DNA of 64,000 bases from a virus (IMGVR_UViG_3300018065_000012); one strand, 5' to 3'. Positions 14,943 to 37,511 are shown, counted from the first letter of the stretch. A program made the numbers and translations. Notes: a model not told the origin generated them from the sequence alone.

Positions 14943-16441
14943 ATGTTTCATCTGAACTTCAAAAAATAGCAACGCTTCTCGTAACTGCGACTCTCGCAGA
15001 AAAAGAATTTGAACGCTTTCTCAAAGTGTTTTTGAAAGGTACGCCTTTTGCGCACAAGGCGTATGCCGTAGGCGGTTACGTCCGTGATGAATTGTTAGGT
15101 TTGGAATCAAAAGACCTTGACGTTGTTGTAGAGATGAAGGGTGGCGCTGAAAAACTTACTAAGTTGATTAAGAAGGAATTGGGCAAAGCAGTTTCTACTC
15201 CGAGGCAATTGGGCGCTGGTTATCCTATTTGGCAGATTGCTTTCAAAGAAGATATTTCTTATGAGGGTAAGACGTATAAAACCAAAGGCGCGGTTCTTGA
15301 ATTTGCCGATACGATGACTGAGAGTTTTCCTGACCCAGAAAGCAGACAACGACAAACTGAATATGGAACGCTTGAGCAGGACGTTAAACGCCGAGATTTT
15401 ACCGTCAACATGTTGATGAAAGATTTGACAAACGGTGAAATCAAAGACTTGACCGGAGTGAGTAAGAATGATTTGAAGAAAGGAATCTTGCGCGGTCATC
15501 CCGGCGTTTCGCTTGATAAGATTTTCATGAACGACCCGTTGCGAATGATACGTTTGATCCGGTTCCAAACGAAATACGGATGGGACATTCCAATGGATGT
15601 GTTACGCATTGTCAAACGCAATGCAAAACGAATTCAAATTGTGTCGCCTGAACGCATTATGGGAGAACTTGAAAAGGTAATGAAATTGGGCAAACTGAAC
15701 AAAGCAATTCGATTAATGAAGATAACAGGTTTACTCAAATATGTACTTCCAGAAGTGGATGAGCTTACAAAAGTCAAGCAGTCGCCGAAGCAACATGCAG
15801 AAGGAAACGTATTCAAACATACTATGATGGTATTGAAAAACGCAAAGCCAACGGTAGAGGCTCAGATGGCGGCGTTGTTGCATGACGTTGGAAAGGCAAA
15901 GACGCAGCAGATATTTGGAAACGGGATTTCATTCCATGGCCATGAAAAAGTGTCTGGTGAAATCGCGGAAGCAATTTTGCGTAGGCTGAAGTTTGACAGT
16001 CGTACGATCAATACTGTTCGCAAATTGGTTGAAAATCATATGCGGCCACATCGAATTGATGATATGATAAAATCAAACAAGGGCGATTCAGCGCGTGTGC
16101 AGAAAGTATTGCGTCGCTTTGTCCGCAAGATTGGTGATGAATCTATTGATGCGTTGATTGACTTGGCAGAGGCGGATGCGATCGGAAAGTTGCCGCCGCA
16201 GAATTATGCTCCCAATCTGAGGCGCATGATTGATGATATCAGAAAGTCTCCGTTACCCGTTTCAAAAAAGCCAGTGTTGGACGGCAAAGAAATTATGCAA
16301 ATACTGAACGTGAAGCCGGGACCGCTTGTTGGGGACGTGTCGCGGTTTCTGATTGAGTTGGAAGAGGACTATGCCGCAAAAGGAAAAGCGTTGAAGAAGG
16401 ACGAAGCAAAGAAACAGGTGCTTGAAAGATATAGTCGTTGA
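14939..16441 (+). CDS. cca: CCA-adding tRNA nucleotidyltransferase with HD domain, fused to a ~28-aa N-terminal family helix (MNVSSELQKIATLLVTATLAEKEFERFLK)
   Basis: AYAVGGYVRDELLG...DLDVVV head-domain motifs of Pol-beta NTase/CCA enzymes; HD region downstream. Confidence 0.75.
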   Translation: MNVSSELQKIATLLVTATLAEKEFERFLKVFLKGTPFAHKAYAVGGYVRDELLGLESKDLDVVVEMKGGAEKLTKLIKKELGKAVSTPRQLGAGYPIWQIAFKEDISYEGKTYKTKGAVLEFADTMTESFPDPESRQRQTEYGTLEQDVKRRDFTVNMLMKDLTNGEIKDLTGVSKNDLKKGILRGHPGVSLDKIFMNDPLRMIRLIRFQTKYGWDIPMDVLRIVKRNAKRIQIVSPERIMGELEKVMKLGKLNKAIRLMKITGLLKYVLPEVDELTKVKQSPKQHAEGNVFKHTMMVLKNAKPTVEAQMAALLHDVGKAKTQQIFGNGISFHGHEKVSGEIAEAILRRLKFDSRTINTVRKLVENHMRPHRIDDMIKSNKGDSARVQKVLRRFVRKIGDESIDALIDLAEADAIGKLPPQNYAPNLRRMIDDIRKSPLPVSKKPVLDGKEIMQILNVKPGPLVGDVSRFLIELEEDYAAKGKALKKDEAKKQVLERYSR

Positions 16442-22265: not shown

Positions 22266-22693
22266 GTGCAGTATTGTTGATAGTGGTTTCGTCGTGCTCT
22301 TTAATCGAAGCACGCGGGAGAGAAAAATCATTGTCCGTTGAAGAACATACTCAACGGGCTGAAAAATATCTTGAGAAAAAGAATTGGTGGAAAACACTTT
22401 GGCATTACAACAAAGCGTGGGAAAAACTTTTGAAGGTTGAAAAGAAAGATGAAGCTGAAACGCTTGTGAAGAAAATGAACAAAGTATTTTGGCAAGCAAT
22501 TGAATACAAGATTGAAAACAAGGAGATAACAAATCAAACAGGCGCATTGACGTTCTTGAACAGCAGGATTGCAAAGCGTCAAAAGAAAAAGCTTGACTGT
22601 AAACAGGAATTGGAGATAAAGAAAAAGCTTGAAAACAAAGAGAATGAAAGCGCATTGGAACAGGTCAAGAAAATCTTGAAGGAACTGGAGTGA
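22244..22693 (+). CDS. putative lipoprotein with coiled-coil body (signal peptide + lipobox VVSSC)
   Basis: N-terminal K/R then hydrophobic run then VSSC. Confidence 0.5.
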   Translation: MDETRKLSAVLLIVVSSCSLIEARGREKSLSVEEHTQRAEKYLEKKNWWKTLWHYNKAWEKLLKVEKKDEAETLVKKMNKVFWQAIEYKIENKEITNQTGALTFLNSRIAKRQKKKLDCKQELEIKKKLENKENESALEQVKKILKELE

Positions 22694-23304
22694 TGTTTTT
22701 CATTGGCGACATTCACGGCGAATTTAATACCTACGAAGGTATTATCAAGAAATTGCCGTATTCAATTCAGCTTGGAGATATGGGCGTTGGTTTCGATAGG
22801 CGTGGCGAAGAAATTCTTGCTACACCGTCGCCTCATAAATTCATTCGCGGGAATCACGATGATCCGACGGGTTGCGAAACGTATCCGAATTACTTGGGTA
22901 ATTTTGGGAGCGCCCAACTCAATAAAGAAGTCTGGTTTTTCGTGAGCGGTGCTTATTCCATTGACAAAGACCGGCGTATTCCCGGCGTGAGTTGGTGGAA
23001 AGGCGAAGAGCTTACCTACAGTCAGTTTTCAGATTGCCTTGAGCTTTACGAGGCCAATAGGCCAGATTTCGTTGCTACGCACGAATGCCCGGCGAAAGTA
23101 CTTGGACAGATACGGGCATGTACTTCAGACCATCTGAATCCAACTACGAAGGCGTTTCAGATGATGTTTGAAATTCATCAACCGAAGCTTTGGGTATTTG
23201 CGCATCATCATTATGACAAGGAATTTGATTTTCACGGAACGCACTTCGTTTTGGTGGGGACCAACAGTGTTTTTGATTCGAGCAAATTTTTCACGCAAAA
23301 ATGA
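22690..23304 (+). CDS. calcineurin-like metallophosphoesterase / Ser-Thr phosphatase-like
   Basis: GDIHG, GDMG, RGNHD motifs. Confidence 0.65.
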   Translation: MMFFIGDIHGEFNTYEGIIKKLPYSIQLGDMGVGFDRRGEEILATPSPHKFIRGNHDDPTGCETYPNYLGNFGSAQLNKEVWFFVSGAYSIDKDRRIPGVSWWKGEELTYSQFSDCLELYEANRPDFVATHECPAKVLGQIRACTSDHLNPTTKAFQMMFEIHQPKLWVFAHHHYDKEFDFHGTHFVLVGTNSVFDSSKFFTQK

Positions 23305-23312
23305 GTCGGGAA

Positions 23313-23325
23313 GGTTGTATAATAA
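23313..23325 (+). promoter_or_regulatory. promoter-like motif GGTTGTATAATAA (site C) only 5 nt from the ATG of 23329
   Basis: Same core as 16831, 31699. Confidence 0.4.
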
Positions 23326-23328
23326 AAC

Positions 23329-23973
23329 ATGAACAGGCTACAAAAAGTAGAGACCAAATTGATTCAGCGAAAGGAAGCGTTGCTTCGTTTACAGATCGAA
23401 AACGAGACGTTGGACAAGCAGATCGACGAGCATATACGAAGAATTTCGGATAATATGATCCAGCTTGAGCTTGGGCAAGAGGCTCTGCAATTTCTTGAGG
23501 ATGTCGCAAACTCAAGACGCGGTGAGATGAAAAGCCAAATTGAAAACGTCGTGTCTGAAGCGTTGTCGCTTATTTATGATAACGACTACGGCGTTGAGCT
23601 TGTGTATGATGTTAAGAATAATCGCAGCTTTACAGAAATCAAGCTTTTGAAAAAGACATCGCAAGGAGTTGTACGGCGCACGATGAATGGATTTGGCGGC
23701 GGTGTTAGCGATACGATTTCTGTTCCTTTGCGGTTGCTTGTTTTGTTGGCTTCGCGGCAGACTGACCGTGTTTGTGTTTTGGATGAGCCGTGGAAGCATA
23801 TGGATTTGACTGATCGGATCGATCGTGCTGCTGAATTTATTCATGAAATAGCGCACCGGCTTGATTTGCAAACGGTAATGTGCAGCCATCATGAAGCAAT
23901 GCAGGAAGCGGCTGATGTAGCTTGGCGTTTCTCGGACGACAACGGTACGACTATCGTTGAAAAGATTAAATAG
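23329..23973 (+). CDS. SMC/Rad50/SbcC-like ABC ATPase C-terminal half (coiled coil + signature-like GFGGGVSD + Walker B VLDEP + H-loop SHH); no Walker A
   Basis: Motif order typical of Rad50 C-lobe. Confidence 0.45.
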   Translation: MNRLQKVETKLIQRKEALLRLQIENETLDKQIDEHIRRISDNMIQLELGQEALQFLEDVANSRRGEMKSQIENVVSEALSLIYDNDYGVELVYDVKNNRSFTEIKLLKKTSQGVVRRTMNGFGGGVSDTISVPLRLLVLLASRQTDRVCVLDEPWKHMDLTDRIDRAAEFIHEIAHRLDLQTVMCSHHEAMQEAADVAWRFSDDNGTTIVEKIK

Positions 23974-23984
23974 GGAGATTGAGA

Positions 23985-24479
23985 ATGGCAATCAGGACTG
24001 CTTCTGTGGATGACAAAACAGCAACGCTGATCGACAATGGTGCGCGGCTGGATCAAACGGCGAAGAATGTTGCGTTGGAATTGCAAGGCACAAAAGCAAT
24101 TCTTTGTAATAAGGCCGACTTTGAAGCTGACGAGAAAAGTGTTCGGTTGGAAGGCACAAAAGCTTGTGCGGTGGTATCCAAAAGAATTGCTTATGAATTG
24201 AAGTTGCCTAACGATGAAGCGCAGAAGGAATTTGAAGGTGAACTGTCAAAAGGCAAATTTGCAAACGTCGTCAAGGCAGAAGTGAAGGTCAATGTTTCTA
24301 CAGAGCGGCTTGGGGAGCTTGTCATGCTACTCGATCAAAAGGGTTTTACCTTTGGAAAGAAATTCAAGGTTGATCCGAAGGGTTTCAAAGCATATTGCAA
24401 AGAAGTAGATTCTCCGGAAGTGCTCGCAAATAACGTGAGGGAAGAGGAAACAATGAGCGTGAAATTTGAAATTGAATGA
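23985..24479 (+). CDS. hypothetical protein
   Basis: agggag SD 7 nt upstream. Confidence 0.55.
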   Translation: MAIRTASVDDKTATLIDNGARLDQTAKNVALELQGTKAILCNKADFEADEKSVRLEGTKACAVVSKRIAYELKLPNDEAQKEFEGELSKGKFANVVKAEVKVNVSTERLGELVMLLDQKGFTFGKKFKVDPKGFKAYCKEVDSPEVLANNVREEETMSVKFEIE

Positions 24480-25801
24480 AAGGAAGAAAAATGGCGAGAC
24501 GTAGAGAAAAGAAAATCAATGAACAAGAAAAGACGTACGAAGGTTGTTATGGTCAGCGCGTGAAGTATGATCGACTGCTCTCTTTCATCACGACAAATTT
24601 CGAGCTGAACGACATCAATGAACAAAGTGGTCAGCCGCGTTTTGCCCAGTGTATCTGGGGGCATCCCGGCATCGGGAAAACGGCTTTGGTAAAACAACTC
24701 AAAAACACGCCCGTCGAATGGCGTGGCAAGAAGTATGATGGTTGGGACATCCGCGATGTTCCAATTGCGCAGTTTGAAGAAATGGGCGACCTTCACGGCA
24801 TTCCGATGGACTGCATCCTGATGTACAAAATTGAGGGCAAAGGCCCGGACTCTGAAAGGAAAGAGCAGTGGGTGCCGCAGCGCGAACAGACCGTTGTTGC
24901 CTTCAGGGAAGACGGTTGGCAGATTGATTCCAACGTCACGCCGAGAACGATTATGGCACCGCCTGATTGGGTACCTCTCAAGCCCGGACCTGCCATTTTG
25001 CTTCTGGATGACTTCAACCGCGCCAGCATCCGAATCATCAAGGGCATCATGCAGTTGCTCCAGAACTACGGCATGGTGTCGTGGAAATTGCCTCCCGGTT
25101 GCAATATCGTTTTGACGGGCAACCCTGATGAACAGGATTATCTGGTCACGACAATTGATGCGGCTATTATCACGCGCATCAAACACATCACGCTTCAGGA
25201 AGATGCCAAGCAGTGGGCTGAATGGGCCACGTCGCAGAATCTTGATGCCCGTGGAATTTCGTTTTGTCTCTTTGACCCTGAAATGATGATCGGGAAAGAG
25301 CGCACCAACCCGCGAACGCTGTCTGAGTTTTTCCGGTACATGAAAACCGTTCCAAGCGTTGAAGACCTTGACGGTGGCGGTATCCGCAAAGACGTTTCCG
25401 TTCACGCCCATAGCCTTTTGGACGAAGAAACGGTTGCGGCGTTTTTCGTGTTCTGCACGAGGGATATGGAAGACGTCATTGAACCGGAAGATGTTCTTGA
25501 TGGAAAGAAGAACGTTGCTGACCGCGTAAAGAAATTGATGAAGCGCAAGGAGCCGCGCACGGATATTTTGGGCATCACTTGCGAACGACTTTTTGCTACG
25601 ATGGTTCAGTCTGAAACGGAGCAAACGCCAGCGCGAATCAAAAACTTCCAAAAGTTCGTCACCAACGAAGTTGTTCCTCCGGACATTCGTCACTCATTGT
25701 GCAAACGTCTTTCCAAGCGCACGGAAAACGACGGGCGCAATCAGAAGTGGCTGATTGGGGATGAAAAGCTGCGTGAACAGATTTTGGAGATGCTGCGATG
25801 A
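24476..25801 (+). CDS. MoxR-like AAA+ ATPase
   Basis: Walker A GHPGIGKTALV; Walker B ILLLDDFNRA. Confidence 0.65.
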   Translation: MKGRKMARRREKKINEQEKTYEGCYGQRVKYDRLLSFITTNFELNDINEQSGQPRFAQCIWGHPGIGKTALVKQLKNTPVEWRGKKYDGWDIRDVPIAQFEEMGDLHGIPMDCILMYKIEGKGPDSERKEQWVPQREQTVVAFREDGWQIDSNVTPRTIMAPPDWVPLKPGPAILLLDDFNRASIRIIKGIMQLLQNYGMVSWKLPPGCNIVLTGNPDEQDYLVTTIDAAIITRIKHITLQEDAKQWAEWATSQNLDARGISFCLFDPEMMIGKERTNPRTLSEFFRYMKTVPSVEDLDGGGIRKDVSVHAHSLLDEETVAAFFVFCTRDMEDVIEPEDVLDGKKNVADRVKKLMKRKEPRTDILGITCERLFATMVQSETEQTPARIKNFQKFVTNEVVPPDIRHSLCKRLSKRTENDGRNQKWLIGDEKLREQILEMLR

Positions 25802-25995
25802 GCGAAGGACGTTATCGCTTTGTGGTCGAAGTTTCAAGTTGTTACGAAATTCGCTTGGATGAATACAACGAAGAAAAGGCTCACAAAGAAGCAGTAGAAA
25901 TGTTTAATGAAGATGTGTCTGCAAAACGTCTTCAGTTTAGTACTAACATAATTGAATCCGAAGACTCGCAGACTGGGGACGCTTCGATTCACTAA
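25798..25995 (+). CDS. hypothetical small protein
   Basis: ATGA overlap. Confidence 0.45.
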   Translation: MSEGRYRFVVEVSSCYEIRLDEYNEEKAHKEAVEMFNEDVSAKRLQFSTNIIESEDSQTGDASIH

Positions 25996-26009
25996 TTAGG
26001 GGAAGGGAA

Positions 26010-26441
26010 ATGGATTTGAAAGAAAGGGCGGAAGAGAATTGGCATAAGATTCACGACAGTAGAAGGACGTCTGACGGCCCGAGAGAAATGACGTATGACG
26101 AAGTGTTTGAACATTTCATGAAGCACGTTTGGAATATGATCGACTATTGGGCCAAAGTAGAAAAAGACAGCACCCGTGAAAGGCTTGCCGGTTTTGCTCA
26201 TTCTATGCTTGCAATGCTGGATGGGAGTTCCGTTATGCTTCCGCGTTTCATTGTCGCGCCGGACCCTTGTGCTCCAGAAGATAGGGAATTTTGCAGGGAT
26301 GAAGAAAAATGTAATTGGTATCCTGAGAACAAGAATTGCAACGTGAAATGCGATTTGTCTGGCGGATTACATGAGTTGCTACACCAGCATGACCCGAGAA
26401 GAAAAAAGGAAGACGATGAAGAAAGCGCATCCGAGAGCTAA
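26010..26441 (+). CDS. hypothetical protein
   Basis: ggggaaggga SD. Confidence 0.55.
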   Translation: MDLKERAEENWHKIHDSRRTSDGPREMTYDEVFEHFMKHVWNMIDYWAKVEKDSTRERLAGFAHSMLAMLDGSSVMLPRFIVAPDPCAPEDREFCRDEEKCNWYPENKNCNVKCDLSGGLHELLHQHDPRRKKEDDEESASES

Positions 26442-26868
26442 AAAACAGCCCAAAATGAGGCACTCCGAGGACATAAGGTGGAATAACCTTCGAAGTTGCG
26501 AAAGACTGCTCGGAAAGCCCATAGATTCGTATTTTGGGATTGGCCGCTTTGTCAAAATGGGCGACGGATTTTACGGAATCCGAATGCGCATGTACTGTTG
26601 GTACAGATACGATAAAACAGAGAAAAAGAAATGTAACCGTTGGCAGGTTGCGTATTTACGCAGAGGAGCTGCTGGTCCAGATCACTGTGTTTACAATTAC
26701 AAAGGAAAATTCGTCGGCGATTTGCGAGATCAGGTTTACGTTTGTCCAGATCATAAACGTAGGCACGATGGCGTTTTAGCAAAGATTACTCGTAACAGTA
26801 AGAAGAGAGAAGCAGAAGTTGCAAAGGAAGAAGGCAAAAGGAAAAAGAATGCAAGTAAAAAATCTTAG
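26416..26868 (+). CDS. hypothetical basic Cys-containing protein (start uncertain)
   Basis: ORF 26371..26868 trimmed. Confidence 0.45.
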   Translation: MKKAHPRAKKQPKMRHSEDIRWNNLRSCERLLGKPIDSYFGIGRFVKMGDGFYGIRMRMYCWYRYDKTEKKKCNRWQVAYLRRGAAGPDHCVYNYKGKFVGDLRDQVYVCPDHKRRHDGVLAKITRNSKKREAEVAKEEGKRKKNASKKS

Positions 26869-26904
26869 ATGGGGTGTAGCACGAATTTTGAAAAGGGTTT
26901 AAGA

Positions 26905-27479
26905 ATGAATGCAAAGGAGAATACGGGTGTTCGCAGAGCTACGGAAGTGTGGCTTACTGCGGACACCCACTGAATTTTGGGCACGATAATATCCGAAAAT
27001 ATTGCAACCGTCCTTTTGCGTCGGCGAAAGAAATGGACGAGGCGATTATTGAGAATTGGAACAAAGTCGTCAAAGCGGGAGATATTGTTTGGCACTTGGG
27101 AGATTTTTGTTGGGGCAGATACCCTGCCGATGTTGAGCGTTACCTCAAGCGTTTGAACGGAAATGTTTGTTTGATCTACGGGAACCATGATCGCCAAGCA
27201 GTCAGACGCGCAAATGGATTTTCAGAAAAGCGTGATTTGAGGCGTATCAAGATCAATGATCAAGAAATCATTCTATGTCACTATGCTATGCGGGTTTGGG
27301 ACAAATCTCATTTTGGCTCTTGGCATTGTTACGGACACACTCACGGCACTTTGGAGGAGCCAAAGGATTCACTTTCGTGCGATGTAGGTGTAGATGCTTG
27401 GGATTTCACTCCGGTCTCGTTTGATCAAATCAAAGCTCATCTGTCCACGCGAGAATTCACGCCAATTAACAAACGCTAA
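26905..27479 (+). pseudogene. metallophosphoesterase disrupted by a frameshift: motif I (VWLTADTH) is in one frame ending in TGA at 26971; the rest (FGHDNIRKYCNRPF...GDF...GNHD) continues in the -1 frame
   Basis: Frame A 26905..26973, frame B from GTG 26949; ~5-nt insertion relative to the expected DTHFGH. Confidence 0.5.
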
Positions 27480-27507
27480 ATTTTTTTCTTGATTTTCTTC
27501 CCGAAAA

Positions 27508-27530
27508 CCATATAATAATTTTATATTTGC
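27508..27530 (+). promoter_or_regulatory. AT-rich element CCATATAATAATTTTATATTT (late-motif family member)
   Basis: Shares TTTTATATTT core with 39071, 49135, 55766, 59586, 62758. Confidence 0.4.
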
Positions 27531-27568
27531 GTATTGTTGAGACAAGTATCTCTCTCGACAGAGGAAAT

Positions 27569-28327
27569 ATGAAAACGAAAGTATCGTTGGATACGCTTCA
27601 GGCGTTGTCCTACAATCCACGCCTAATCACCGATATAGAATTGGAACGTCTGAAGGCGTCGATAAAAGAACATACCAAGGCTATTCCCAAGAAGACAAGA
27701 GGCGAAGGTTACCGGCTGACTACCACTGTTACGGTCAACGTCAATGGGAATCGTATTGTTGGCGGACACCAACGAATAAAAGCGTTGAAGTCGTTAGGAC
27801 AGGATTGGATTCACGTCAAAGATATAACTTGGGTAGACGTTAAACCGGATAGCTCTAAAGAAAAGTCTTTGAACATAACGCTCAATAGTGAACGCTATGG
27901 AGGTTTTTGGAATCAGCCAAAGCTTGATGAACTTTTGCGGGGAATCAAAATTGACGATGAAGCGTTATATGAGAAACTTGATTTGCCGTATATTGAACTT
28001 GAAAAAGTAAACGTAGATGTAGCAGAAATGTTGCCGCAGAAGGAACCCGAGAAATCTGGAAAGGACGAGCCAGAGGGGAAACCAGAATTCAACTTAGAAC
28101 CCATTTTTGAAGATGGTCCTGCTTTGGAAGAGCCATTGGAAGAGACAGATGGTAAAGCCGTTGTTCCGTCGGATATGCCGCAACTTTACCCTCTGTCGTA
28201 TGCGGTGACGGCAGAACAACGGCAAAAAATTTTAGCCGCCATCAAAAAGGCGAAAGAAACATATAGTGCGAAAACGAGTGCTGATGCGCTCACGATTGTT
28301 TGCGAACGCTTTAACGATGCGCCTTAA
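27569..28327 (+). CDS. ParB/Srx-like N-terminal domain protein (GGHQR motif), paralog 1
   Basis: VNVNGNRIVGGHQRIKALKSLGQDWIHV; acidic C-terminus. Confidence 0.5.
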   Translation: MKTKVSLDTLQALSYNPRLITDIELERLKASIKEHTKAIPKKTRGEGYRLTTTVTVNVNGNRIVGGHQRIKALKSLGQDWIHVKDITWVDVKPDSSKEKSLNITLNSERYGGFWNQPKLDELLRGIKIDDEALYEKLDLPYIELEKVNVDVAEMLPQKEPEKSGKDEPEGKPEFNLEPIFEDGPALEEPLEETDGKAVVPSDMPQLYPLSYAVTAEQRQKILAAIKKAKETYSAKTSADALTIVCERFNDAP

Positions 28328-28338
28328 CGGAGGAAATT

Positions 28339-29031
28339 ATGAGCACAAAAAAGATTGGCTTGACATCACTCAACGTTGTTGATTACAACCCAAGGATAAT
28401 TGGGAGTGAAGAACTGGAAAACTTAAAAGCTTCAATCAAGGAACACACTGATACCATTCCAGAAGATGAACGTGGTGAGGGCTTTCGATTGACGTCAACG
28501 ATCACCGTGAACAGACAAGGGAATCGTATTATTGGCGGGCACCAACGCATAAAGGCTCTTAAAAATTTGGGTCAGGACTGGATTCATCCTGACGACATCA
28601 CATGGGTTGAGGTTGAACCAAACTCGGCTAAAGAAAAAGCTTTGAACGTAAGCTTAAACAACGACAAAGCCGCTGGGTCGTGGGATAGAACAAAGCTTGA
28701 TGCTATATTGAAGTCTATCAAAGTTGATATGCCGGTCATTTCTGAAAATCTCGGGTTTGACGAAATCCAATTGGAAATGCCTCAAATTGATTCGGGCGAA
28801 ATATCTCAAATTCCAACTACAGAATTGTCAGGAGACTCTTCTGGATCGTCCGACGATGAAAAAGTACAAGGCCCACCTAAACTTGATATTCAAGGCGTTG
28901 ACGACAGAGCAGGACGTTTTTTGCTTACCTACACAACTGATGAAGAGAAAAGCTTTTGGATGAAGCGGTTGGGTATCAAAGGCGATAAGGTCGTCTATGT
29001 TCCTTCAGATGTTGACGAAGTTAACAGGTGA
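28339..29031 (+). CDS. ParB/Srx-like N-terminal domain protein, paralog 2
   Basis: VNRQGNRIIGGHQRIKALKNLGQDWIHP ~60% identical to paralog 1. Confidence 0.5.
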   Translation: MSTKKIGLTSLNVVDYNPRIIGSEELENLKASIKEHTDTIPEDERGEGFRLTSTITVNRQGNRIIGGHQRIKALKNLGQDWIHPDDITWVEVEPNSAKEKALNVSLNNDKAAGSWDRTKLDAILKSIKVDMPVISENLGFDEIQLEMPQIDSGEISQIPTTELSGDSSGSSDDEKVQGPPKLDIQGVDDRAGRFLLTYTTDEEKSFWMKRLGIKGDKVVYVPSDVDEVNR

Positions 29032-29034
29032 TCC

Positions 29035-29805
29035 ATGTATGAAACAAAAAGCGGGAAGAAAGTTTCTATTGTAATCCCATCTAAAGAACGAGCGGAAGCT
29101 GGGACAACTTGGAATTTGTTCCCAGACGCAACGGTATTTGTTCATGAACGCGAATTGGAGGAATACAAAAAGCATTTACCAAATGCAAAAATTGAGACTC
29201 ATACTGAAGATGGCGGGCTTACGCCAATCAGAAATATTATCATGCGAAAGATAAGTATGGGTGATTGGGTAATCCAACTTGATGACGATATAAAGGTCGT
29301 TGGATATTTTACAGCAGATGGTGACAAAAAGAAAAAGGTCAAATGGTCGTCAAAGCAACACATGAACGAATGGTTTAACGCTATTGATCTTGCAGAGAAA
29401 AGTGGATTTTATCTCATTGGAGAATCTCCAACGGCCAATGAATTTTACTATCGTCCAGAGCGTCCGCATTCGATTAACACGTTTGTTGAAGGTCATTGCA
29501 TGATTATCAAGCGTTGCGAATTGATGTTTGATGAAAAATGCAGGGTAAAACAGGATTATGATTATACGCTTCAATGTGCAGTCAGCGGACGTCGGGTTTT
29601 ACGTTTAGATTATCTTTGGTCTGACTACACCTATCGCAAGGCAGCAGGCGGTTGTATGGATACGTGGAAGAAATCCGGATTGGAAGAAGAAGTGTATAAT
29701 TACATGATGAATAAATGGAAAGGTCTTCTTATCCCAAAAAGAAATCGCGCAAGTTCTCCATATGAATTTACGATGAGGGTGCCGAAAGAATGGTCCAACC
29801 AATGA
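29035..29805 (+). CDS. GT-A fold glycosyltransferase-like protein
   Basis: N-terminal KVSIVIPSKERAE and DxD-like QLDDDI. Confidence 0.4.
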   Translation: MYETKSGKKVSIVIPSKERAEAGTTWNLFPDATVFVHERELEEYKKHLPNAKIETHTEDGGLTPIRNIIMRKISMGDWVIQLDDDIKVVGYFTADGDKKKKVKWSSKQHMNEWFNAIDLAEKSGFYLIGESPTANEFYYRPERPHSINTFVEGHCMIIKRCELMFDEKCRVKQDYDYTLQCAVSGRRVLRLDYLWSDYTYRKAAGGCMDTWKKSGLEEEVYNYMMNKWKGLLIPKRNRASSPYEFTMRVPKEWSNQ

Positions 29806-30398
29806 ATTCTGTTTTAGTCATTGCGCCCCATCCTGACGATGCAGAATTAGGTTGCGGGGCAACTATTTCCAAATTAATACGGAATGGCTGTAAGGTATCA
29901 ATATTAACATTGACTGATCGGAGCGAATTTGATATTGAACCAGAAGTTCAAGCGGCTGCAAAAGAACTTGGTTTGGAAGAGAATATAAAGCTTTTGAATT
30001 TTCCTCATCGCGATCTTTGGTCGTCAAGAGCTGGTATCTTGCGCACGTTTGAACGTGCTCGTGATACATTGGATTTAGATGTCGTTTTTACGCCAGCGCC
30101 AGACGACTTACATCAAGACCATCAAGTAAGTTTGGAAGAAGCAAAGCGTGCTTTCAAAGGGACAACGCTTTGGGGTTATGAAATTTTGAGAAGTAATTTC
30201 TCTTTTGCAGCGGATGTGTTTGTTGAGGTAGAGAAGGAAGATGTTGAAAGGAAAGTAAAAGCCATAAAACATTATCATACGCAAGCAAACAAATTGTACT
30301 GTCGCGCAGAAGCGATTTTTGGGCTTGCGCGTGTAAGAGGAGCAATGTGTGGGGCGGTGTTAGCAGAAGGTTTCAAGAATATTTGGCAAGTGCTATAA
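29802..30398 (+). CDS. PIG-L / LmbE family N-acetylglucosaminyl deacetylase
   Basis: VLVIAPHPDDAELGCG (AHPDDE motif). Confidence 0.7.
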   Translation: MNSVLVIAPHPDDAELGCGATISKLIRNGCKVSILTLTDRSEFDIEPEVQAAAKELGLEENIKLLNFPHRDLWSSRAGILRTFERARDTLDLDVVFTPAPDDLHQDHQVSLEEAKRAFKGTTLWGYEILRSNFSFAADVFVEVEKEDVERKVKAIKHYHTQANKLYCRAEAIFGLARVRGAMCGAVLAEGFKNIWQVL

Positions 30399-30407
30399 GG
30401 ACGCGTT

Positions 30408-31658
30408 ATGGATTATTATCAAGCACCAAGGTGGACGTCAGAAATTGCCGATTGCTCGATGCCGATGACGTTTGATCAATATTCAAATTGTTCATATGGC
30501 TGTTTATATTGCTTCAGTACGTTTCAGCGAGCCGTTGGAGACGGGAAAGAAAATTACTTAGCAAAAAGGGTCAAGCCTGTTAAGATTGAAAGCGTAGTTA
30601 AACATTTCTGCGATCCAGAAAAATCTCAATTTGGGCCATTTATTAGAATGGGTAAGACAATGCAATGGGGTTCGTTGTCTGATCCGTTTTGTAATTTTGA
30701 AAAGAAGTATGGCGTTGGATTAGAGTTGTTACGGTTTTTCAAGGCAATAAACTATCCATTGTGCCTTAGCACAAAGGGCGTTTGGTGGCTCGATGATCCT
30801 CGCTATACGGAACTATTCAAAGGTCAAAAGAATTGGAACGTAAAAGTCAGCATCATCATGACAAATGAAGATTTTGTAAAGAAAATTGAGCCGGGAGTTC
30901 CTACGACAAAAGAAAGACTTAAAGCCCTTGAAAAGATTACTGCTTTGAATTGCGGTGGCGCGACTTTGCGATTGCGACCTTTCATTATTGGGATTACGAA
31001 TCACAACAATGGTCATATTGAACTTATCAAAGAATCTGGCAAACGTGGCGCTGGGGCCGTGTCTACAGAATTTTTTTGTTGTGAAAGGCGTTCAATGATT
31101 TTGCGCGAACGTCTAAAAATAATGAGTGAGTGCGCTGGCTTTGATGTTTGGAAATACTATGTAAAGAATTCATACAATCAGGGCTATATGCGTTTGAACA
31201 GAAACACAAAGCGACCTTATGTCGATGAAATGCAAAAGGCGGCACGCGAAGCAGGAATGCGCTTTTATGTAAGTGATGCTCATTTCAAAGAGCGTTGCGA
31301 TAATGGTTCTTGTTGTGGACTGCCTGCTGATTGGCCCGGAAGTTATTCCAAAGGACAATGGTGCGAAGCGTTGATGATTGCAAAGAAACGTGGCTATGTT
31401 ACGTGGGATGATATTGATCCTCACTTGGCTTATGCAGATACGTTCCTTTGGCGTTTGAATATTGGAATGAATCGCGGCTCGGCGGAAAAAGCAGCATCAT
31501 TTGTGAATCATACTTGCAAGGATTATATGCGTTGGTTGTGGAATAATCCAAATGCAGGACAAAGCCCTTACTATATGTACGAAGGAATCTTAAAACCAAG
31601 ACCAGACGCAGATGCGAATGGAAATCTGATCTACGATTACGACTCATCAAAGGCTTGA
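30408..31658 (+). CDS. radical SAM enzyme, SplB / DNA-photolyase-like (COG1533-like)
   Basis: CSYGCLYC = CxxxCxxC; N-terminal context like spore photoproduct lyase family. Confidence 0.6.
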   Translation: MDYYQAPRWTSEIADCSMPMTFDQYSNCSYGCLYCFSTFQRAVGDGKENYLAKRVKPVKIESVVKHFCDPEKSQFGPFIRMGKTMQWGSLSDPFCNFEKKYGVGLELLRFFKAINYPLCLSTKGVWWLDDPRYTELFKGQKNWNVKVSIIMTNEDFVKKIEPGVPTTKERLKALEKITALNCGGATLRLRPFIIGITNHNNGHIELIKESGKRGAGAVSTEFFCCERRSMILRERLKIMSECAGFDVWKYYVKNSYNQGYMRLNRNTKRPYVDEMQKAAREAGMRFYVSDAHFKERCDNGSCCGLPADWPGSYSKGQWCEALMIAKKRGYVTWDDIDPHLAYADTFLWRLNIGMNRGSAEKAASFVNHTCKDYMRWLWNNPNAGQSPYYMYEGILKPRPDADANGNLIYDYDSSKA

Positions 31659-31681
31659 GAGAAACTTTTTTCAAAAAAGTG

Positions 31682-31710
31682 TTGAAAAAATATCTCTGGG
31701 TTGTATAATA
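31682..31710 (+). promoter_or_regulatory. sigma70-like promoter TTGAAA-16nt-TATAAT containing GGTTGTATAATA (site B)
   Basis: Intergenic 31659..31878. Confidence 0.55.
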
Positions 31711-31878
31711 GGACGAGTGGGGCAAGAAAGGAGTCGCCTATGAATTGAAGTGGTGCGTCACTGGCCTTACAGGTGACACGAGTTTTGTTAGCAAACGCAT
31801 TCGTCAATGTTGACAGATACAAAAGCTAACGAATCCGCGACCGATAACAAGGTTGCAAGTGAGCGAAAGGAACAAATC

Positions 31879-32868
31879 ATGTCTGCGAATAAATTTACTG
31901 TTGAAAAACTTGAATCAAAAGTCAACGAAGCAGCTCATATCGTTTTGGGCATTCCCAATTTTATTATCAAAGCCTCAGATGAAGAGCGGAAGAAACTTGC
32001 CGCAAAGCACATCTGGGACAAACTTGGCCTGCTTGGAGTTTACAGGGATGCTGAATCGCATGAGTTGTTAATGGTTGATTGTCCAGAGGGAGAAGCGAGA
32101 CGTGTTTTCTGCGAAACTGGCGGCTCTCCATATCTGCCTGCGGTTCGATTCAGACGTGTCTGGGCTATCCTTACAGAAAGAACCGCGCCCACGACAGACG
32201 TTGCTTATAAGGAATTGAGCAGCGGCTTTGAAAAGTTCAGTCAGGGCTTGAAGGAAACGCTCCGTACGCCGGGACAAATGAAGGACAAGGAACTTGTTGA
32301 AGCTTACGGTCCTGAATGTGAGGTCTCAATCATTGACGAGCTTAAAAGGCGAAGCAATGATCGTCCTTTTGTTGTTTTCAACAACAGAGAAGATGCCGTT
32401 GTGGACGTTGAAACGACGCTCAGAATGTTGCGGGAAGCTCGCCGTGGCCGTACAATGCCTGTCAATTACAAAGTCGCCGACAGTTTGAAGCGGCTTTATC
32501 GTGCTGGCGAATTTCCTGCGATGTTTTATTTTCACTGTCCTTTCCACAAAGATACATTGCTTGTGGATGGATTCTGTGACAAGTCAAAGCAGGTCTGGGA
32601 AGGAATTGATTACGAATGTATGCAGTTTGCCCGCATTGCTCTTGAATTGGAGGAGATCACAAGCAGGACTCCTGATATTCGCCAATTCATTGGTCTTGCT
32701 GTTCAAGGCGGTTTGGAAGGTTTGCGGTTGAACTATCCTCATGTGGCGCTCGTCTTTGATGAGCGGAAGGAAGTTGACTCTCTGCCAAATCTGAAAGTGA
32801 GAATGTCGGATACATCAGGGCGTCAATATGCGGACCCGATGAACCCGAACCAGAAACAGCGTTTCTAA
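31879..32868 (+). CDS. hypothetical 330-aa protein (cluster member)
   Basis: aaggaa SD 6 nt upstream of ATG 31879. Confidence 0.55.
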   Translation: MSANKFTVEKLESKVNEAAHIVLGIPNFIIKASDEERKKLAAKHIWDKLGLLGVYRDAESHELLMVDCPEGEARRVFCETGGSPYLPAVRFRRVWAILTERTAPTTDVAYKELSSGFEKFSQGLKETLRTPGQMKDKELVEAYGPECEVSIIDELKRRSNDRPFVVFNNREDAVVDVETTLRMLREARRGRTMPVNYKVADSLKRLYRAGEFPAMFYFHCPFHKDTLLVDGFCDKSKQVWEGIDYECMQFARIALELEEITSRTPDIRQFIGLAVQGGLEGLRLNYPHVALVFDERKEVDSLPNLKVRMSDTSGRQYADPMNPNQKQRF

Positions 32869-32934
32869 ATCATAAATGTTTGGCCCGTGGGAGGAAACTC
32901 CCACGGGCTGAGCACTTTCTGAAAGGATATAAAA

Positions 32935-34017
32935 ATGGATTACGTAAAAGAACTTGCCAAAGGTGGTTATGTTCATGAAATGGAACATGCCAGCTTCAAG
33001 GCAAGATTGATGAAGGCAGAGCGTCTTGAAGGTGAACAGGTTCACGGTCTCCCTCCCGGTCAACCCATTCCCGTTTTCCCAATTGCCGCATTGCCCGGCG
33101 CACCGGATTCTTGGGTACGCGAAGCAGGGGCGTATGTTTGTCCTATTGATGTCGGATGGGGATTGTGGTTTGATTGGACGATGAATGATGCAATGAACAC
33201 GACAATTGTTCCCAGCGTCAAAGGAATGAATCCTATCACCGGACGCAAGCTTGAAGGTTTGGGGTTGGAGCAGTATGCTGACAAGTGTCCTGTTCATGAC
33301 AAGCCTTTTTCGCATGGCTATTTTTGTGAGGAATGCAACTACTCTTGGCCACCGCAAAATTACGTTTGTCATCCCAATACGCTTTGGTGGGATGGATTCA
33401 GGCAACCGGATGGAACGGTACGGCAATTCTTTTTCACCGATGAAGACAAGCGAGATATTGCCAGTGCGGTAATTGGAAAAGAAAACACCGTACCAGCTTT
33501 TGGTTTTGCATTTTACAAGCCCAAAGTTTCAAGAACGCCACCGCAACGAATCACGCGGGGGTTTAGTGGCTATGGCGGGCAAATGGTTTACACGACAAGC
33601 AACTCGTCGGATCACCAGACGTACGATAGCAGTACAATCTGCCTTTCTGGGGATCAGCTGTCCAAAGGATTGATTGCCCCACAGAGTGTTAACGTTTTTC
33701 ATGTGTCTCAAATTGAAGAGAAGACAAGCGGAAAAGTGAATTGCAATGCTTTGCGGAGTAGTATCAGCGGCCAATCTGAAGCCCCAACGCCAAAGAAAAG
33801 CAAAGACGTCAGTGTTGGCGCAGGAGCGCAGATACGGCAAGATTTATCTCCTGATGATCTCGGGCTTGAAGGATGGCAGGACAAAGCCGGAGGCGTTATC
33901 CGGTTGTACTTCTGCTTTGAAGAGCAATTGAAGGAGATTATCGAAAAGGGTGGCGTCAAGGATTTCATGGTCGCATCGGATAAGGAAGGCTATCTGAAAG
34001 GACTTCCGAAAGGATAG
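32935..34017 (+). CDS. hypothetical 360-aa protein (Cys/His-containing)
   Basis: aaaggatataaaa SD-like. Confidence 0.55.
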   Translation: MDYVKELAKGGYVHEMEHASFKARLMKAERLEGEQVHGLPPGQPIPVFPIAALPGAPDSWVREAGAYVCPIDVGWGLWFDWTMNDAMNTTIVPSVKGMNPITGRKLEGLGLEQYADKCPVHDKPFSHGYFCEECNYSWPPQNYVCHPNTLWWDGFRQPDGTVRQFFFTDEDKRDIASAVIGKENTVPAFGFAFYKPKVSRTPPQRITRGFSGYGGQMVYTTSNSSDHQTYDSSTICLSGDQLSKGLIAPQSVNVFHVSQIEEKTSGKVNCNALRSSISGQSEAPTPKKSKDVSVGAGAQIRQDLSPDDLGLEGWQDKAGGVIRLYFCFEEQLKEIIEKGGVKDFMVASDKEGYLKGLPKG

Positions 34018-34356: not shown

Positions 34357-34371
34357 GCTGGATTTTTCTAA

Positions 34372-34413
34372 ATATGGGTCGTGTCTAAAAAATGACGCGG
34401 CCCATATTTTTTT
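34372..34413 (+). terminator. rho-independent terminator (12-bp stem with two G-U pairs, 12-nt loop, T7 tract)
   Basis: atatgggtcgtg...cgcggcccatat ttttttt. Confidence 0.65.
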
Positions 34414-34421
34414 GATAAATT

Positions 34422-34442
34422 TTGCTTCTTCGATTGTATAAT
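34422..34442 (+). promoter_or_regulatory. promoter-like motif TTGCTTCTTCGATTGTATAAT (site D)
   Basis: Nearly identical architecture to 16821..16842. Confidence 0.5.
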
Positions 34443-34462: not shown

Positions 34463-34783
34463 ATGAAAAACCCATCGGAAGAAGATTGGTCAGAATTGTA
34501 TGGTCGGAAGTTCGAGCATAACGAAATCCGAGAGGCTTGTGACATCTTCGATCTTCTCCGGTATTTCTGCGAAGACAAACCAGAGATGCTTCCATCGTTC
34601 GTCCGAGAAAACATGAAACTGGGGCATCGTCTTTTCATGGCGATGAACCTCGAACCAGATGACCTTGGGGTTTTGGTCTTGAGAGAAGAGGACGATAGAA
34701 TAGTCCACGTCATCAAAGAACGCTGCGCAGAACTCAACAGACAAAAACAGGGACGCAGCAATATCATATTACCGGGAGAATGA
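34463..34783 (+). CDS. hypothetical protein
   Basis: gcggag SD. Confidence 0.55.
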   Translation: MKNPSEEDWSELYGRKFEHNEIREACDIFDLLRYFCEDKPEMLPSFVRENMKLGHRLFMAMNLEPDDLGVLVLREEDDRIVHVIKERCAELNRQKQGRSNIILPGE

Positions 34784-35997
34784 CAGTGGTAAAGAAATCA
34801 AGCATCAACTCGCAAAAAGAAGTAATGATGGGGATTGTCGATCTCATTCGCCACAAGATTTTCTATGGTCACATCTTACAACAGCTCACCAAAGTCTACG
34901 GCGCTGCAAAATACGGAATTCCAACGATGGGCGTTGGAAAGCAGCAGAATGAACTGTTGATTAAGCTTTACGTCAATGAAGAATTTATCAAGCATATATT
35001 TGAAATTGCGAAGACCGAAGAGCAAGCCCATACATTCCTTCAGGGCGTCTTGGAACATGAAACGCTTCATATCATTTTTGACCATATCAAGATGGAATTT
35101 AGCGACCCCGTGCGCGGGAATGTCGCTTGCGACCTTGCTGTGAACAGTCATATCAACCATTCAAACTTGACGCCGGGAGCCTGTTTGCCGGACAAATACA
35201 ATCTTGAATCTGGCAAGGGCGCATTCTGGTATTACACGCATCTAAAAGACAATCAGCAATACAAAAAGCAATGCAAGCAAGGAGCTTTTGGCGCTGGTGG
35301 GATGATGGAGGAAGTTGGTTCCCACGAAATGTGGAAAACAGCAGCTCAAGACCCTCTACTTCAAGAATTTTGCAAAGACATCGTTTCCAAGGCAAGAGAT
35401 TTGTGCAATCAGGATTACGGAGACGTTCCCGGAGAAGTAATTTCACAAGTTGATATGCTATTGGGGAAGAAAAAGGCGATCATTCCTTGGAACAAGGTTT
35501 TGAGAACGTTTGCAGCAAGCGCAACGGAAAGCAACTTGGACTACACGGTGAAACGGGTCAGCAAACGCTTCGGGACGCGTCCGGGAACGCGCAAGGAAGA
35601 CGTTTTGAATCTGGCTGTTGCGGTTGACACTTCAGGGTCAATCAGCGATGATCAGCTGAAGTTGTTTTTCAACGAGGTCAAATGGATTTGGAAAAATGGT
35701 GCAATTGTAACTATGTATGAGGCTGATTGCAAAATTTGTCGTGTGTACGAATTCAAGGGTAAGTTCAAAGGCGAAGTTCATGGGCGAGGTGGTACTGATC
35801 TTGAACCAGTTTTGGTTGCAACTGAACGTCGGTTTGATGCATTAATCTATTTCACAGACTTCTATGCCCCCAATATCAACACTCGTTATCGCATTCCTAC
35901 GCTTTGGGTTTTGACGACTGAGTTGGAACGTGACGAATTTCCTTACAAATGGGGAAGGTTCGTCAAGATAGACTCTGGCAAGCCGGAGCTTGTCTAA
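34780..35997 (+). CDS. VWA domain protein with N-terminal putative HExxH metallopeptidase region
   Basis: LEHETLHIIFDH; MIDAS VAVDTSGSISD; GGTDLEPVL. Confidence 0.6.
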   Translation: MTVVKKSSINSQKEVMMGIVDLIRHKIFYGHILQQLTKVYGAAKYGIPTMGVGKQQNELLIKLYVNEEFIKHIFEIAKTEEQAHTFLQGVLEHETLHIIFDHIKMEFSDPVRGNVACDLAVNSHINHSNLTPGACLPDKYNLESGKGAFWYYTHLKDNQQYKKQCKQGAFGAGGMMEEVGSHEMWKTAAQDPLLQEFCKDIVSKARDLCNQDYGDVPGEVISQVDMLLGKKKAIIPWNKVLRTFAASATESNLDYTVKRVSKRFGTRPGTRKEDVLNLAVAVDTSGSISDDQLKLFFNEVKWIWKNGAIVTMYEADCKICRVYEFKGKFKGEVHGRGGTDLEPVLVATERRFDALIYFTDFYAPNINTRYRIPTLWVLTTELERDEFPYKWGRFVKIDSGKPELV

Positions 35998-36011
35998 ATC
36001 TGGAGGAAATT

Positions 36012-36356
36012 ATGAGGACGCTTTTAGTTGTTACAGATAGTACAATCAAAAATCATGAAGGGGAAGAGTATGATGATTACATCGTTGTGAAAGCAATCCC
36101 CTCACAAGAAGAAATGCCCGCTATCGCAAATGAAATCCGAAATAAGATTCGGGGCATTGTCATTGATGCGCAGAAAGAAAATGAAGGAGAGGCTCAAGTC
36201 AAGATTGAAGTTGACGCTACGCCGCCCTATGATGTTATTTTAGTGAGTCTCGTTGACACAATGGGGCAAGAAGAAAAATTGAACGTCGTTCTGCCTGAGC
36301 GGTTGGACCGTGGCGGAAACAAAGAAAAACTTATCATCGAATCCGAGGAGGGATGA
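36012..36356 (+). CDS. hypothetical acidic protein
   Basis: ggagg SD. Confidence 0.55.
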   Translation: MRTLLVVTDSTIKNHEGEEYDDYIVVKAIPSQEEMPAIANEIRNKIRGIVIDAQKENEGEAQVKIEVDATPPYDVILVSLVDTMGQEEKLNVVLPERLDRGGNKEKLIIESEEG

Positions 36357-36357
36357 A

Positions 36358-36852
36358 ATGCCCAAAGACCCTGACAGTTTTGTAAATTCAGATGTTACAG
36401 ACGCTATGGAGAAAATGGTGGAATCTTTTCCAAACCTTTTTTCTGGGTTTGACGTTAGCAAGGTTTCAAGCGTCCACACAAAAGGAAAGAGCAGCAACAG
36501 AAGGCCACTTAGCTTAAGGGCTGTACGTTATCCTTTCAGCATTTGGATGGATCAAACGTATATTATAGAAGTTGCGAACGACACATGGCAGGAGATGGAT
36601 CAGAAACGGAAAAACTTAGCGGTATTTCACATCATGTGCGCGATTCCCGAAGGAGCCTTTGATCCAGAAGGCAATCATTATCGCCAAATCAAAAGGCCCG
36701 ATTACGAATTGTACGAAGCAGAATTTTTGGCTGCTGGCGGAATTCCCAATTGGATGGAAAACGACAAAGCCCAAGACCCAATGGAAATTCCCGAAGATGA
36801 CGTTATACGCAATCCCGTAACGGTTGAGGACGTCGCGAACGTCGGTGTTTGA
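36358..36852 (+). CDS. hypothetical protein
   Basis: gaggaggg SD. Confidence 0.55.
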   Translation: MPKDPDSFVNSDVTDAMEKMVESFPNLFSGFDVSKVSSVHTKGKSSNRRPLSLRAVRYPFSIWMDQTYIIEVANDTWQEMDQKRKNLAVFHIMCAIPEGAFDPEGNHYRQIKRPDYELYEAEFLAAGGIPNWMENDKAQDPMEIPEDDVIRNPVTVEDVANVGV

Positions 36853-37511
36853 TGAAGAGGACCACCGACGAGATTTTTGCAATGTCGCCAGAGCAGCGAC
36901 GGCGATTGAGACTCGATTTCAAAAAAGGTTCATACAATAAGCCAAGGAAGAAGTTTGCAGACGATGAGCTTATTGAATGGGCGACGTCTCGTGGTGTAAA
37001 ATCCATGAGGCAATTAGATAGAGCACGCGAGCAAGGCGATCCCAATAGACATAATTTTGAACGGGCTTTCGGAAGCTGGGAAAATTTCAAGCGAATAGCC
37101 TATCCAGAAGATTACAAGCCAAATTTGCTCAACACAATCCCTAAAGATGCAAAGTACATGGCGCAGCTTTTGATCCAGTATAACGTCTGGACGGCAGAGA
37201 AATACCGTAGAGCAAGAAAAGCATATCCTGAAATATTCCCATCCATCAACAAAGTATATTTCAATTTTAGAGGTTGGTCGGATTTGGTCATTGTCGCCAA
37301 GAGTCTTTCAATGGAGAAAACAATTGACCGTTATCTTGAGTTGAAAAACAAACTTGGCCGGTGGCCGACAGTAGCAGAAAGCAGAGAGAGAATGATAGAA
37401 CTGAGGCCACTTATTGATATCCATAAAAGCAAGAAAGCAGTCGATGGTTTTCTTGAAAGTATGGAGAGAAAAGCAAATGCAAACGGAAGAGAAGGTTCGG
37501 GAACGGTTTGA
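36849..37511 (+). CDS. hypothetical protein
   Basis: ATGA overlap. Confidence 0.55.
   Translation: MMKRTTDEIFAMSPEQRRRLRLDFKKGSYNKPRKKFADDELIEWATSRGVKSMRQLDRAREQGDPNRHNFERAFGSWENFKRIAYPEDYKPNLLNTIPKDAKYMAQLLIQYNVWTAEKYRRARKAYPEIFPSINKVYFNFRGWSDLVIVAKSLSMEKTIDRYLELKNKLGRWPTVAESRERMIELRPLIDIHKSKKAVDGFLESMERKANANGREGSGTV

Follow-up and report, generated by a model that had tools for sequence, protein, structure and literature searches.

Do two genes that lie 9 kb apart in a viral genome still encode the two halves of one machine? The question is raised by IMGVR_UViG_3300018065_000012, a stretch of viral DNA of 64,000 nucleotides (nt) that was analyzed over its full length and that we call the window. 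It contains an open reading frame (ORF) for a P-loop ATPase and, farther along the same strand, an ORF for a protein in which a predicted zincin peptidase domain precedes a VWA domain with a metal ion-dependent adhesion site (MIDAS). A preliminary description of the window had taken the two products for a MoxR-like ATPase and its usual kind of VWA partner, encoded at a distance from each other. Both ORFs and all four motifs that it quoted are present where it placed them (Table 1), and the genes are indeed not adjacent: 8,978 nt (25801 to 34780) and 13 ORFs separate them on one strand. On balance, we favor the view that the two genes encode halves of a phage MoxR-type AAA+/VWA machine of the N4 gp24/gp25 family and that their partnership has been kept despite the split.

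Each ORF has hundreds of relatives, in which the residues of the quoted motifs vary little or not at all, and both are real genes rather than chance ORFs. Translation of the ATPase probably starts at 24491 and not at 24476, since this second ATG (M6) is preceded by a ribosome-binding-like AAGGAAG, M6 does not vary across the aligned family, and the protein is 436 amino acids (aa) long in the database.

The ATPase is predicted to be a divergent member of the MoxR-midasin-dynein clade

Searches of a set of 5.8 billion proteins found 843 relatives of the ATPase at E≤1e-3 (E 5e-229 for the closest that is not identical), and from the exhaustive library a profile of 41 relatives retrieved at least 5,240 cluster representatives at the same threshold. 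In PHROGs the protein falls in phrog_1297, labeled 'ATPase' (E 9.5e-35). No Pfam model passed its cut-off on the window ATPase, which gave a weak sub-threshold match of AAA_16 to the P-loop; the 41 close relatives all gave sub-threshold P-loop matches to Pfam and nothing else. PDB searches with the single sequence or with a profile of its close family returned nothing significant. The assignment to a MoxR-like group is therefore based on family profiles and shorter relatives, not on the Pfam scores of the window protein itself.

We aligned the family with homologues from N4-like phages, AR9, PA5oct, and a cyanophage and with six IMG/VR relatives (alignment A2). The A2 profile matched midasin in the PDB at E 4.7e-22 over all of its AAA modules in succession, and the matching runs through the GxxGxGKT...(Q/E)xxDLxG and LLxDExNxA motifs. 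The MoxR structure 2r44 was also matched (E 1.5e-3), and McrB chains were absent from the 60 best PDB matches. Nine short family members (~350-365 aa), which do not have the insert of ~50 residues typical of the window clade, were picked from a profile search in which all listed matches had E≤1e-52. Pfam AAA_5 was passed by seven of the nine, and six cover essentially the whole model; two of the nine score 21.5 and 25.5 bits. Gp16 of Salmonella phage TR2, a homologue of the ATPase, passes AAA_5 as well. The model for MoxR proper, AAA_3, was a sub-threshold second match in six of the nine short members and was never passed.

An AlphaFold (AF2) model built on the alignment of 41 relatives has an AAA+ fold (pLDDT 90.1). 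Between strand beta2 (residues 91-94) and the Walker B strand (173-177) it places a short helix, a beta-hairpin, a helix, and a strand, and the hairpin in this helix-2 region is long (109-120 and 127-134). A helix-2 insert in the AAA+ core defines the MoxR clade (Kaur et al. 2020, PMC7159879), and the model predicts such an insert in the ATPase, where a single plain helix would otherwise stand. Relative to the N4-like ATPases, this insert region is expanded by ~50 aa, a feature specific to the lineage. The protein has the marks of the AAA+ superfamily, namely a P-loop core, Walker A and B motifs, sensor 1, an arginine finger, and a sensor-2 lid. K68, D178-D179, N216, R234, and R280 are invariant in the ATPase alignments. 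The names sensor 1 and arginine finger were given from the place of these motifs in the AAA+ fold, and R280 in NPRT is the probable sensor 2 arginine. The C-terminal domain (about aa 300-440) is long and helical. These profile and model data place the window ATPase as a divergent member of the AAA_5 or MoxR-midasin-dynein clade that is not MoxR in the strict, AAA_3 sense and is not McrB. The preliminary comparison with MoxR/AAA_5 is supported for the broad clade and not for MoxR proper.

Some homologues of the ATPase contain an intein. These are P0241 (861 aa), P0244 (820 aa), and probably an ORF in an IMG/VR contig (L013, 9623-11098). The intein of P0241 matches Pfam Intein_splicing and LAGLIDADG_3 at residues ~107-502. 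The intein site is a break in the family profile near position 60, close to the P-loop.

The partner combines a putative zincin with a VWA domain

The VWA protein has 850 relatives in the database and falls in phrog_1314 (E 8e-56). It passes Pfam DUF2201_N, a putative metallopeptidase family (PF13203; E 8e-9, 35.9 bits, cut-off 23.2), in its N-terminal part and the VWA-like Pfam DUF2201 (PF09967; E 8e-16, 58.7 bits, cut-off 26.4) in its C-terminal part, which makes it a DUF2201 protein. Two alignments of the family were examined, A3 with 21 diverse sequences down to 24 % identity and A4 with 31 closer ones. H93, H97, and H102 do not vary in either alignment; E94 is likewise fixed in A3, and in A4 its conservation is at least 90 %. 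The protein is accordingly a putative zincin, with an HExxH motif and third zinc ligand that are kept throughout the family. The MIDAS residues D283, S285, S287, T339, and D360 are invariant across the 21 sequences of A3, and a structure modeled from A4 has the VWA fold, so that both the fold and the DxSxS...T...D pattern of a VWA/MIDAS protein are in place. The earlier reading of this ORF as a DUF2201-like HExxH and VWA protein is borne out by these profiles; in the profile searches that had been proposed as a check, the partner passed both of its models, and the ATPase scored below the AAA_5 cut-off, which relatives of it do pass. The peptidase, MIDAS, and ATPase residues are so strictly conserved that the ATPase-VWA module is predicted to be an active machine.

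Phrog_1314 and many RefSeq records for this family, including TR2 gp15, Frozen gp39, AR9 gp029, and proteins of many Vibrio phages, are labeled 'HNH endonuclease'. No HNH model of Pfam matches the window protein at E≤0.01 or its TR2 and Frozen homologues at E≤1. We rejected this identity, as no HNH model matches at these thresholds and DUF2201_N and DUF2201 cover the protein. On proteins of the DUF2201_N-DUF2201 type the label looks like a propagated annotation error. A role of the pair as a defense system found no support, since no PADLOC or NCBIfam model matched the ATPase or its partner.

The two families are linked across phages

Relatives of the VWA protein are encoded in at least 530 IMG/VR stretches, of which we examined the best 80. 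In 70 of these 80 loci the VWA gene has a family ATPase within 4 kb, always on the same strand, and in most of the 70 the ATPase gene overlaps the VWA gene or sits no more than 20 nt away. Of the ten exceptions, L031-L035 are the window's closest relatives, and most of the remaining five lie on contigs that end within ~1.5 kb of the VWA gene. Cultured phages have the same arrangement. The ATPase gene directly precedes the VWA gene in the N4-like phages TR2 (gp16/gp15) and Erwinia phage Frozen (gp38/gp39), and a 'MoxR-like ATPase' gene directly precedes the VWA homologue in cyanophage S-TIM54. In the Bacillus jumbo phage AR9 the genes for gp028 and gp029 are adjacent, downstream of an annotated early promoter, and gp029 is annotated with pfam09967 and pfam13203. 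In IMG/VR loci L017-L022, where the ATPase is 25-36 % identical to that of the window, a VWA relative directly adjoins it. The ATPase family is coupled in the genome to a VWA/MIDAS partner, as is characteristic of the MoxR clade.

The claim that a MoxR-type ATPase and a VWA protein are paired here is in agreement with these data: the families are conserved together, the genes adjoin in most other phages, and the ATPase is not McrB-like. The statement that such pairs are uncommon in phages has to be withdrawn. N4 gp24/gp25 is such a pair, others occur in N4-like and jumbo phages, at least 530 IMG/VR stretches encode a VWA relative, and the pair was described in jumbo phages by Iyer et al. (Iyer, Anantharaman, Krishnan, Burroughs, Aravind 2021, Viruses 13:63; PMC7824862).

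Two loci deserve separate mention. In L097 (2581-4950), one of the 70, one stop-free reading frame matches the hidden Markov models (HMMs) of both families; either the partners are naturally fused there or a frameshift or an assembly artifact joins them. In PA5oct a 'putative homing endonuclease' (gp145), encoded 1.3 kb downstream of the ATPase homologue, was considered as the partner and rejected, as by HMM it is not a DUF2201 protein.

The genes appear to have separated in a huge-phage lineage

The genes of the window form a co-directional array, and its GC skew is strongly positive. Its large terminase (41303-43117) is 32 % identical to its nearest match, which comes from a 485-kb uncultured phage, and the identical ATPase protein was found on metagenomic contigs of up to 338 kb. 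The window therefore derives from an uncultured huge phage.

The two genes remain together on contigs of this lineage. ATPase and VWA clusters share the size of their longest carrying contig eleven times, including 80,658, 132,554, 45,101, 221,945, 342,049, 99,008, 72,791, 47,066, 52,629, and 10,167 nt, and the identities to the window proteins run in parallel (ATPase/VWA 72/68, 66/61, 59/62, 53/55 % and so on). The genes lie 34 kb apart on one strand in k141_228665, and 18.6 and 34 kb apart in IMG/VR 3300029267_004595 and 3300022555_000010. A sister, more distant lineage (L016) has the gene order of the window, with only 4 kb between the ATPase gene and the VWA gene downstream of it. Since the pair adjoins in most other phages and is apart in the window clade, comparison of the loci indicates that adjacency is ancestral and that the separation was derived in the huge-phage lineage. 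An adjacent pair would have been split, by ~9 kb here and up to 34 kb in relatives, with the partnership retained.

Proposed mechanism

As no experiment on a family member was found in the literature searched, the mechanism that we propose is drawn wholly by analogy with midasin, CbbQ-CbbO, NorQ-NorD, RavA-ViaA, and p618/p892 of Acidianus two-tailed virus (ATV) (PMC7159879, PMC7824862). The ATPase would assemble into a hexameric ring on which the VWA protein docks, and the metal of the MIDAS would hold a target protein by an acidic residue. The ring would hydrolyze ATP to remodel the target, which the N-terminal zincin domain might then cleave. We tentatively place the role of the pair before late capsid assembly, or independent of it. 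This is a guess, prompted by the early or middle gene blocks in which N4-like phages and AR9 carry the pair.

Several observations weigh against this explanation. The ATPase itself scores 15.6 bits with AAA_5, over the P-loop only, against a cut-off of 22. Its Walker B motif and that of its clade read D178-D179 instead of the usual D-E found in the N4-like and jumbo relatives. A literature search on N4 gp24/gp25 and on phage DUF2201 proteins returned only annotation tables and the prediction of Iyer et al. In the window clade the ATPase and VWA genes sit in separate conserved blocks, which would also fit a loosened coupling, and in two further IMG/VR loci (L012 and L013) there is no DUF2201 gene within 10 kb of the ATPase gene. 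The two genes are also probably not co-transcribed. A consensus scan placed the strongest terminator-like hairpin of the region, with a 16-bp stem and a T run, in a gap of 106 nt between a zinc-ribbon ORF (34018-34356) and the block that holds the VWA gene, suggesting that the ATPase and VWA genes belong to different transcription units.

Alternative explanations

The pair may be a virion-assembly chaperone and maturation protease that folds and processes structural proteins late in infection. Iyer et al. (2021) put forward such a role in virions for the jumbo-phage pair, and one has been shown for the ATV tail (PMC7824862). The VWA block of the window lies ~5 kb upstream of the large terminase gene, the pair of S-TIM54 lies between Hsp20 and a virion structural protein, and the PA5oct homologue carries the note 'ESI-MS/MS', meaning that it was detected in particle preparations. 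The PA5oct proteome, however, includes 'virion-unrelated enzymes'. In N4-like phages the pair is found in the block of RNA polymerase II subunit, nucleotide, and replication genes, not among structural genes; in AR9 it follows the annotated early promoter, and in the window the ATPase gene is amid genes for nucleic-acid enzymes. We regard a role in virion maturation as doubtful, and as less likely than the earlier role suggested above.

The two proteins could also have become uncoupled in the window clade, with the ATPase serving its Rad50-like and metallophosphoesterase neighbors in DNA-end processing and the zincin-VWA protein working with a PhageMetallopep protein. A Rad50-like gene lies within ~3.8 kb of the ATPase gene in 11 of 12 huge-phage loci (L005-L016), usually at 0.5-2.3 kb and upstream in most (downstream in L012 and L013); none was found near the ATPase gene of L008. 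The hairpin, the ATPases of L012 and L013, and the separate VWA block, p106-VWA-p135-PhageMetallopep-p220, point in the same direction. However, the two genes still share contigs and show parallel divergence, the catalytic and MIDAS residues are all still invariant, and L016 keeps the genes 4 kb apart in the same order. Moreover, a conserved neighborhood in a co-linear phage genome is weak functional evidence. We therefore consider uncoupling unlikely. A full functional rewiring, in which the ATPase acts on a DNA-end-processing or DNA-modification complex and the zincin-VWA protein acts with the PhageMetallopep peptidase, seems very improbable to us; if true, it would be an example from nature of a MoxR ATPase that took a new partner.

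A McrB-type GTPase, or another P-loop protein outside the MoxR group, with an HNH nuclease as partner is the weakest alternative. Pfam AAA_5 spans McrB too, a DExNRA-like Walker B is common to McrB, and the RefSeq and PHROG label of the partner suggests a nuclease. This reading is close to refuted by the domains that cover the partner, a zincin-VWA protein instead of McrC to which no HNH model matches at E≤0.01, by the 60 best PDB matches, which include midasin and a MoxR and not McrB, by the absence of PADLOC matches for either protein, and by the sensor-1 sequence GNPDEQ, which resembles the QNPxEQ of MoxR and not the NTAD of McrB. A conserved ATPase-VWA partnership accounts best for the data, in our view.

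Gene neighborhoods in the window

Features of the two genes and of their surroundings are listed in Table 1. Whether p106, which overlaps the start of the VWA gene, belongs to the ATPase-VWA system is uncertain, and the same holds for the block downstream of the VWA gene. This p135-PhageMetallopep-p220 block accompanies the VWA gene in L016, L026, and L031-L035. Upstream of the ATPase gene, the Rad50-like protein aligns only to positions 682-894 of the 895 positions of the NCBIfam Rad50 model (E 4.8e-7); it is without the Walker A half and has weak PADLOC matches to mad3 and LmuB. By sequence similarity this gene and the metallophosphoesterase gene (22690-23973) may be a split Mre11/Rad50-like pair. 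We take this block as genomic context of the ATPase gene.

Table 1. Positions of the ATPase and VWA genes, their motifs, and neighboring features in the window (nt, counted from the first letter; aa, residues of the ORF).
Feature	nt	aa	Strand	Basis or remark
ATPase ORF, 441 aa	24476..25801		+	ORF call
Probable ATPase coding span, 436 aa; AAA_5 clade, MoxR-like	24491..25801		+	Second ATG
Walker A GHPGIGKT; G65, G67, K68 invariant	24659-24682	62-69	+	Alignment
Walker B LLLDDFNRA; N181 invariant	24998-25024	175-183	+	Alignment
Putative sensor 1 TGNPDEQ (N216 invariant) and arginine finger ITRIK (R234 invariant)	25115..25183		+	Alignment
NPRT motif of lid domain; R280 invariant	25307..25318		+	Alignment and model
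Predicted zincin (DUF2201_N)-VWA/MIDAS (DUF2201) ORF, 405 aa	34780..35997		+	ORF call, Pfam
Putative HExxH...H zinc site LEHETLHIIFDH; H93, E94, H97, H102	35050-35085	91-102	+	
D118 near zinc site, invariant in A3 and A4	35125-35145		+	Alignments
MIDAS region overall	35626..35862		+	Alignment
MIDAS D283-x-S285-x-S287, motif DTSGS	35626-35640	283-287	+	Alignment
MIDAS T339 in GRGGTD	35782-35799		+	Alignment
MIDAS D360 in FTDF	35851-35862		+	Alignment
Terminator-like hairpin	34370..34409		+	Consensus scan only
p106, 106-aa ORF; 4-nt overlap with VWA start	34463..34783		+	Conserved upstream neighbor in huge-phage clade
Block downstream of VWA gene	35949..37511		+	Conserved
p135	35949-36356		+	Downstream block
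PhageMetallopep (PF18894) protein	36310-36852		+	Pfam
p220	36849-37511		+	Downstream block
Block upstream of ATPase gene	22690..24479		+	
Small metallophosphoesterase	22690-23304		+	
Rad50/SMC C-terminal-half-like protein, 214 aa	23329-23973		+	NCBIfam, phrog_15167
p166, 166-aa ORF	23979-24479		+	

Between the ATPase and VWA genes, the plus strand from 26949 to 31658 carries what looks, from the predicted products, like a cassette for DNA base hypermodification. It comprises a phosphoesterase (phrog_547), two ParB-N-like paralogues (27527-28327 and 28339-29031), a TET-associated glycosyltransferase (PF20691, 29035-29805), a PIG-L deacetylase (29790-30398), and a radical-SAM-like protein (30408-31658). 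Two proteins of ~355 aa and a zinc-ribbon protein come after it. A near-consensus sigma-70-like site (11/12) lies at 31682-31709, in a gap of 148 nt before 31807.

In the two contigs whose ATPases have no DUF2201 gene nearby (L012, 4457-9623, and L013; 255-kb and 329-kb IMG/VR contigs), homologues of PhageMetallopep and p220 are encoded 3-7 kb upstream of the ATPase gene on the opposite strand. The slot beside the PhageMetallopep block where the VWA gene would be expected is occupied in L012 by an ORF of 731 aa (7428-9623, minus strand) that matches neither Pfam nor DUF2201. L012 also encodes a TnpB or Cas12f1-like TNB-domain protein (12334-14013).

Elsewhere in the window, whose skew is uniform apart from this place, 58001-60000 is the only stretch in which the GC skew falls to 0 and GC rises to 0.50. 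Its longest ORFs include one on the minus strand (58534-59541), and the stretch might represent an inserted element or a gene for an RNA. A phosphatidylserine decarboxylase (3598-4677), a nucleotidyltransferase of the CCA-adding or poly(A) polymerase type with an HD domain (14939-16441), and the anaerobic ribonucleotide reductase NrdD (60139-62151) are of the auxiliary type common in huge phages.

Significance and comparison with known systems

The window holds one more divergent, unlinked copy of a catalogued pair and matters little alone. The module itself is very common, recurrent in N4-like phages and widespread in jumbo phages, and it is widely mislabeled; experimental work on N4 or AR9 would at once inform the annotation of phage genes by the thousands. 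The unlinked arrangement is a mild curiosity in that the partnership would not depend on co-transcription, separate transcription being itself only probable.

The closest known system is that of N4, in which gp24 is an AAA ATPase and gp25 a vWFA protein (PMC2784036). N4-like phages (Schitoviridae) have phrog_1297 and phrog_1314 proteins, the latter with DUF2201_N and DUF2201, as in the window, and their pair keeps the same conserved catalytic and MIDAS residues. TR2 gp16/gp15 and Frozen gp38/gp39 align over their full length with the window proteins. Identity to the window proteins is 22-28 % for the N4-like homologues and 20-28 % for homologues from cultured phages overall. The N4-like genes adjoin, ATPase then VWA, whereas those of the window are 9 kb apart, and in comparison with the N4-like proteins the window ATPase has an extra insert of ~50 aa after GDLHGxP, an N-terminal extension, and a DD Walker B.

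A MoxR-metallopeptidase-vWA pair has also been described in group 2.2 jumbo phages, with the architecture seen in the window, a MoxR ATPase and a vWA co-chaperone with an N-terminal metallopeptidase; the likeness is one of architecture (PMC7824862). Jumbo phages AR9/PBS1 and PA5oct encode homologues of the window ATPase. The window belongs to a different lineage, one of uncultured huge phages, in which the genes are unlinked.

The MoxR clade and its coupling to vWA proteins have been described (PMC7159879). Cellular MoxR-VWA systems include midasin/Rea1, in which an AAA ring is combined with a MIDAS, CbbQ-CbbO, NorQ-NorD, and RavA-ViaA. To our knowledge, none of the VWA partners in these systems (midasin/Rea1, CbbO, NorD, ViaA) has a zincin peptidase domain. 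Their substrates are known and different, being pre-60S factors, Rubisco, NorB, and Frd/LdcI. No counterpart of the helical C-terminal domain of the window ATPase was detected in the cellular systems. An experimental precedent for a viral MoxR-VWA pair is provided by the ATV tail chaperones p618 (MoxR) and p892 (VWA) (PMC7824862, PMC7159879). The ATV pair, which we liken to that of the window by its description, comes from an archaeal virus and is without a peptidase domain (PMC7824862). The pair in the window belongs to an already catalogued gene-pair family. It differs in its low identity, the expanded insert, the extension, the DD Walker B, and the separation of the genes, and none of these differences changes the kind of system that it is.

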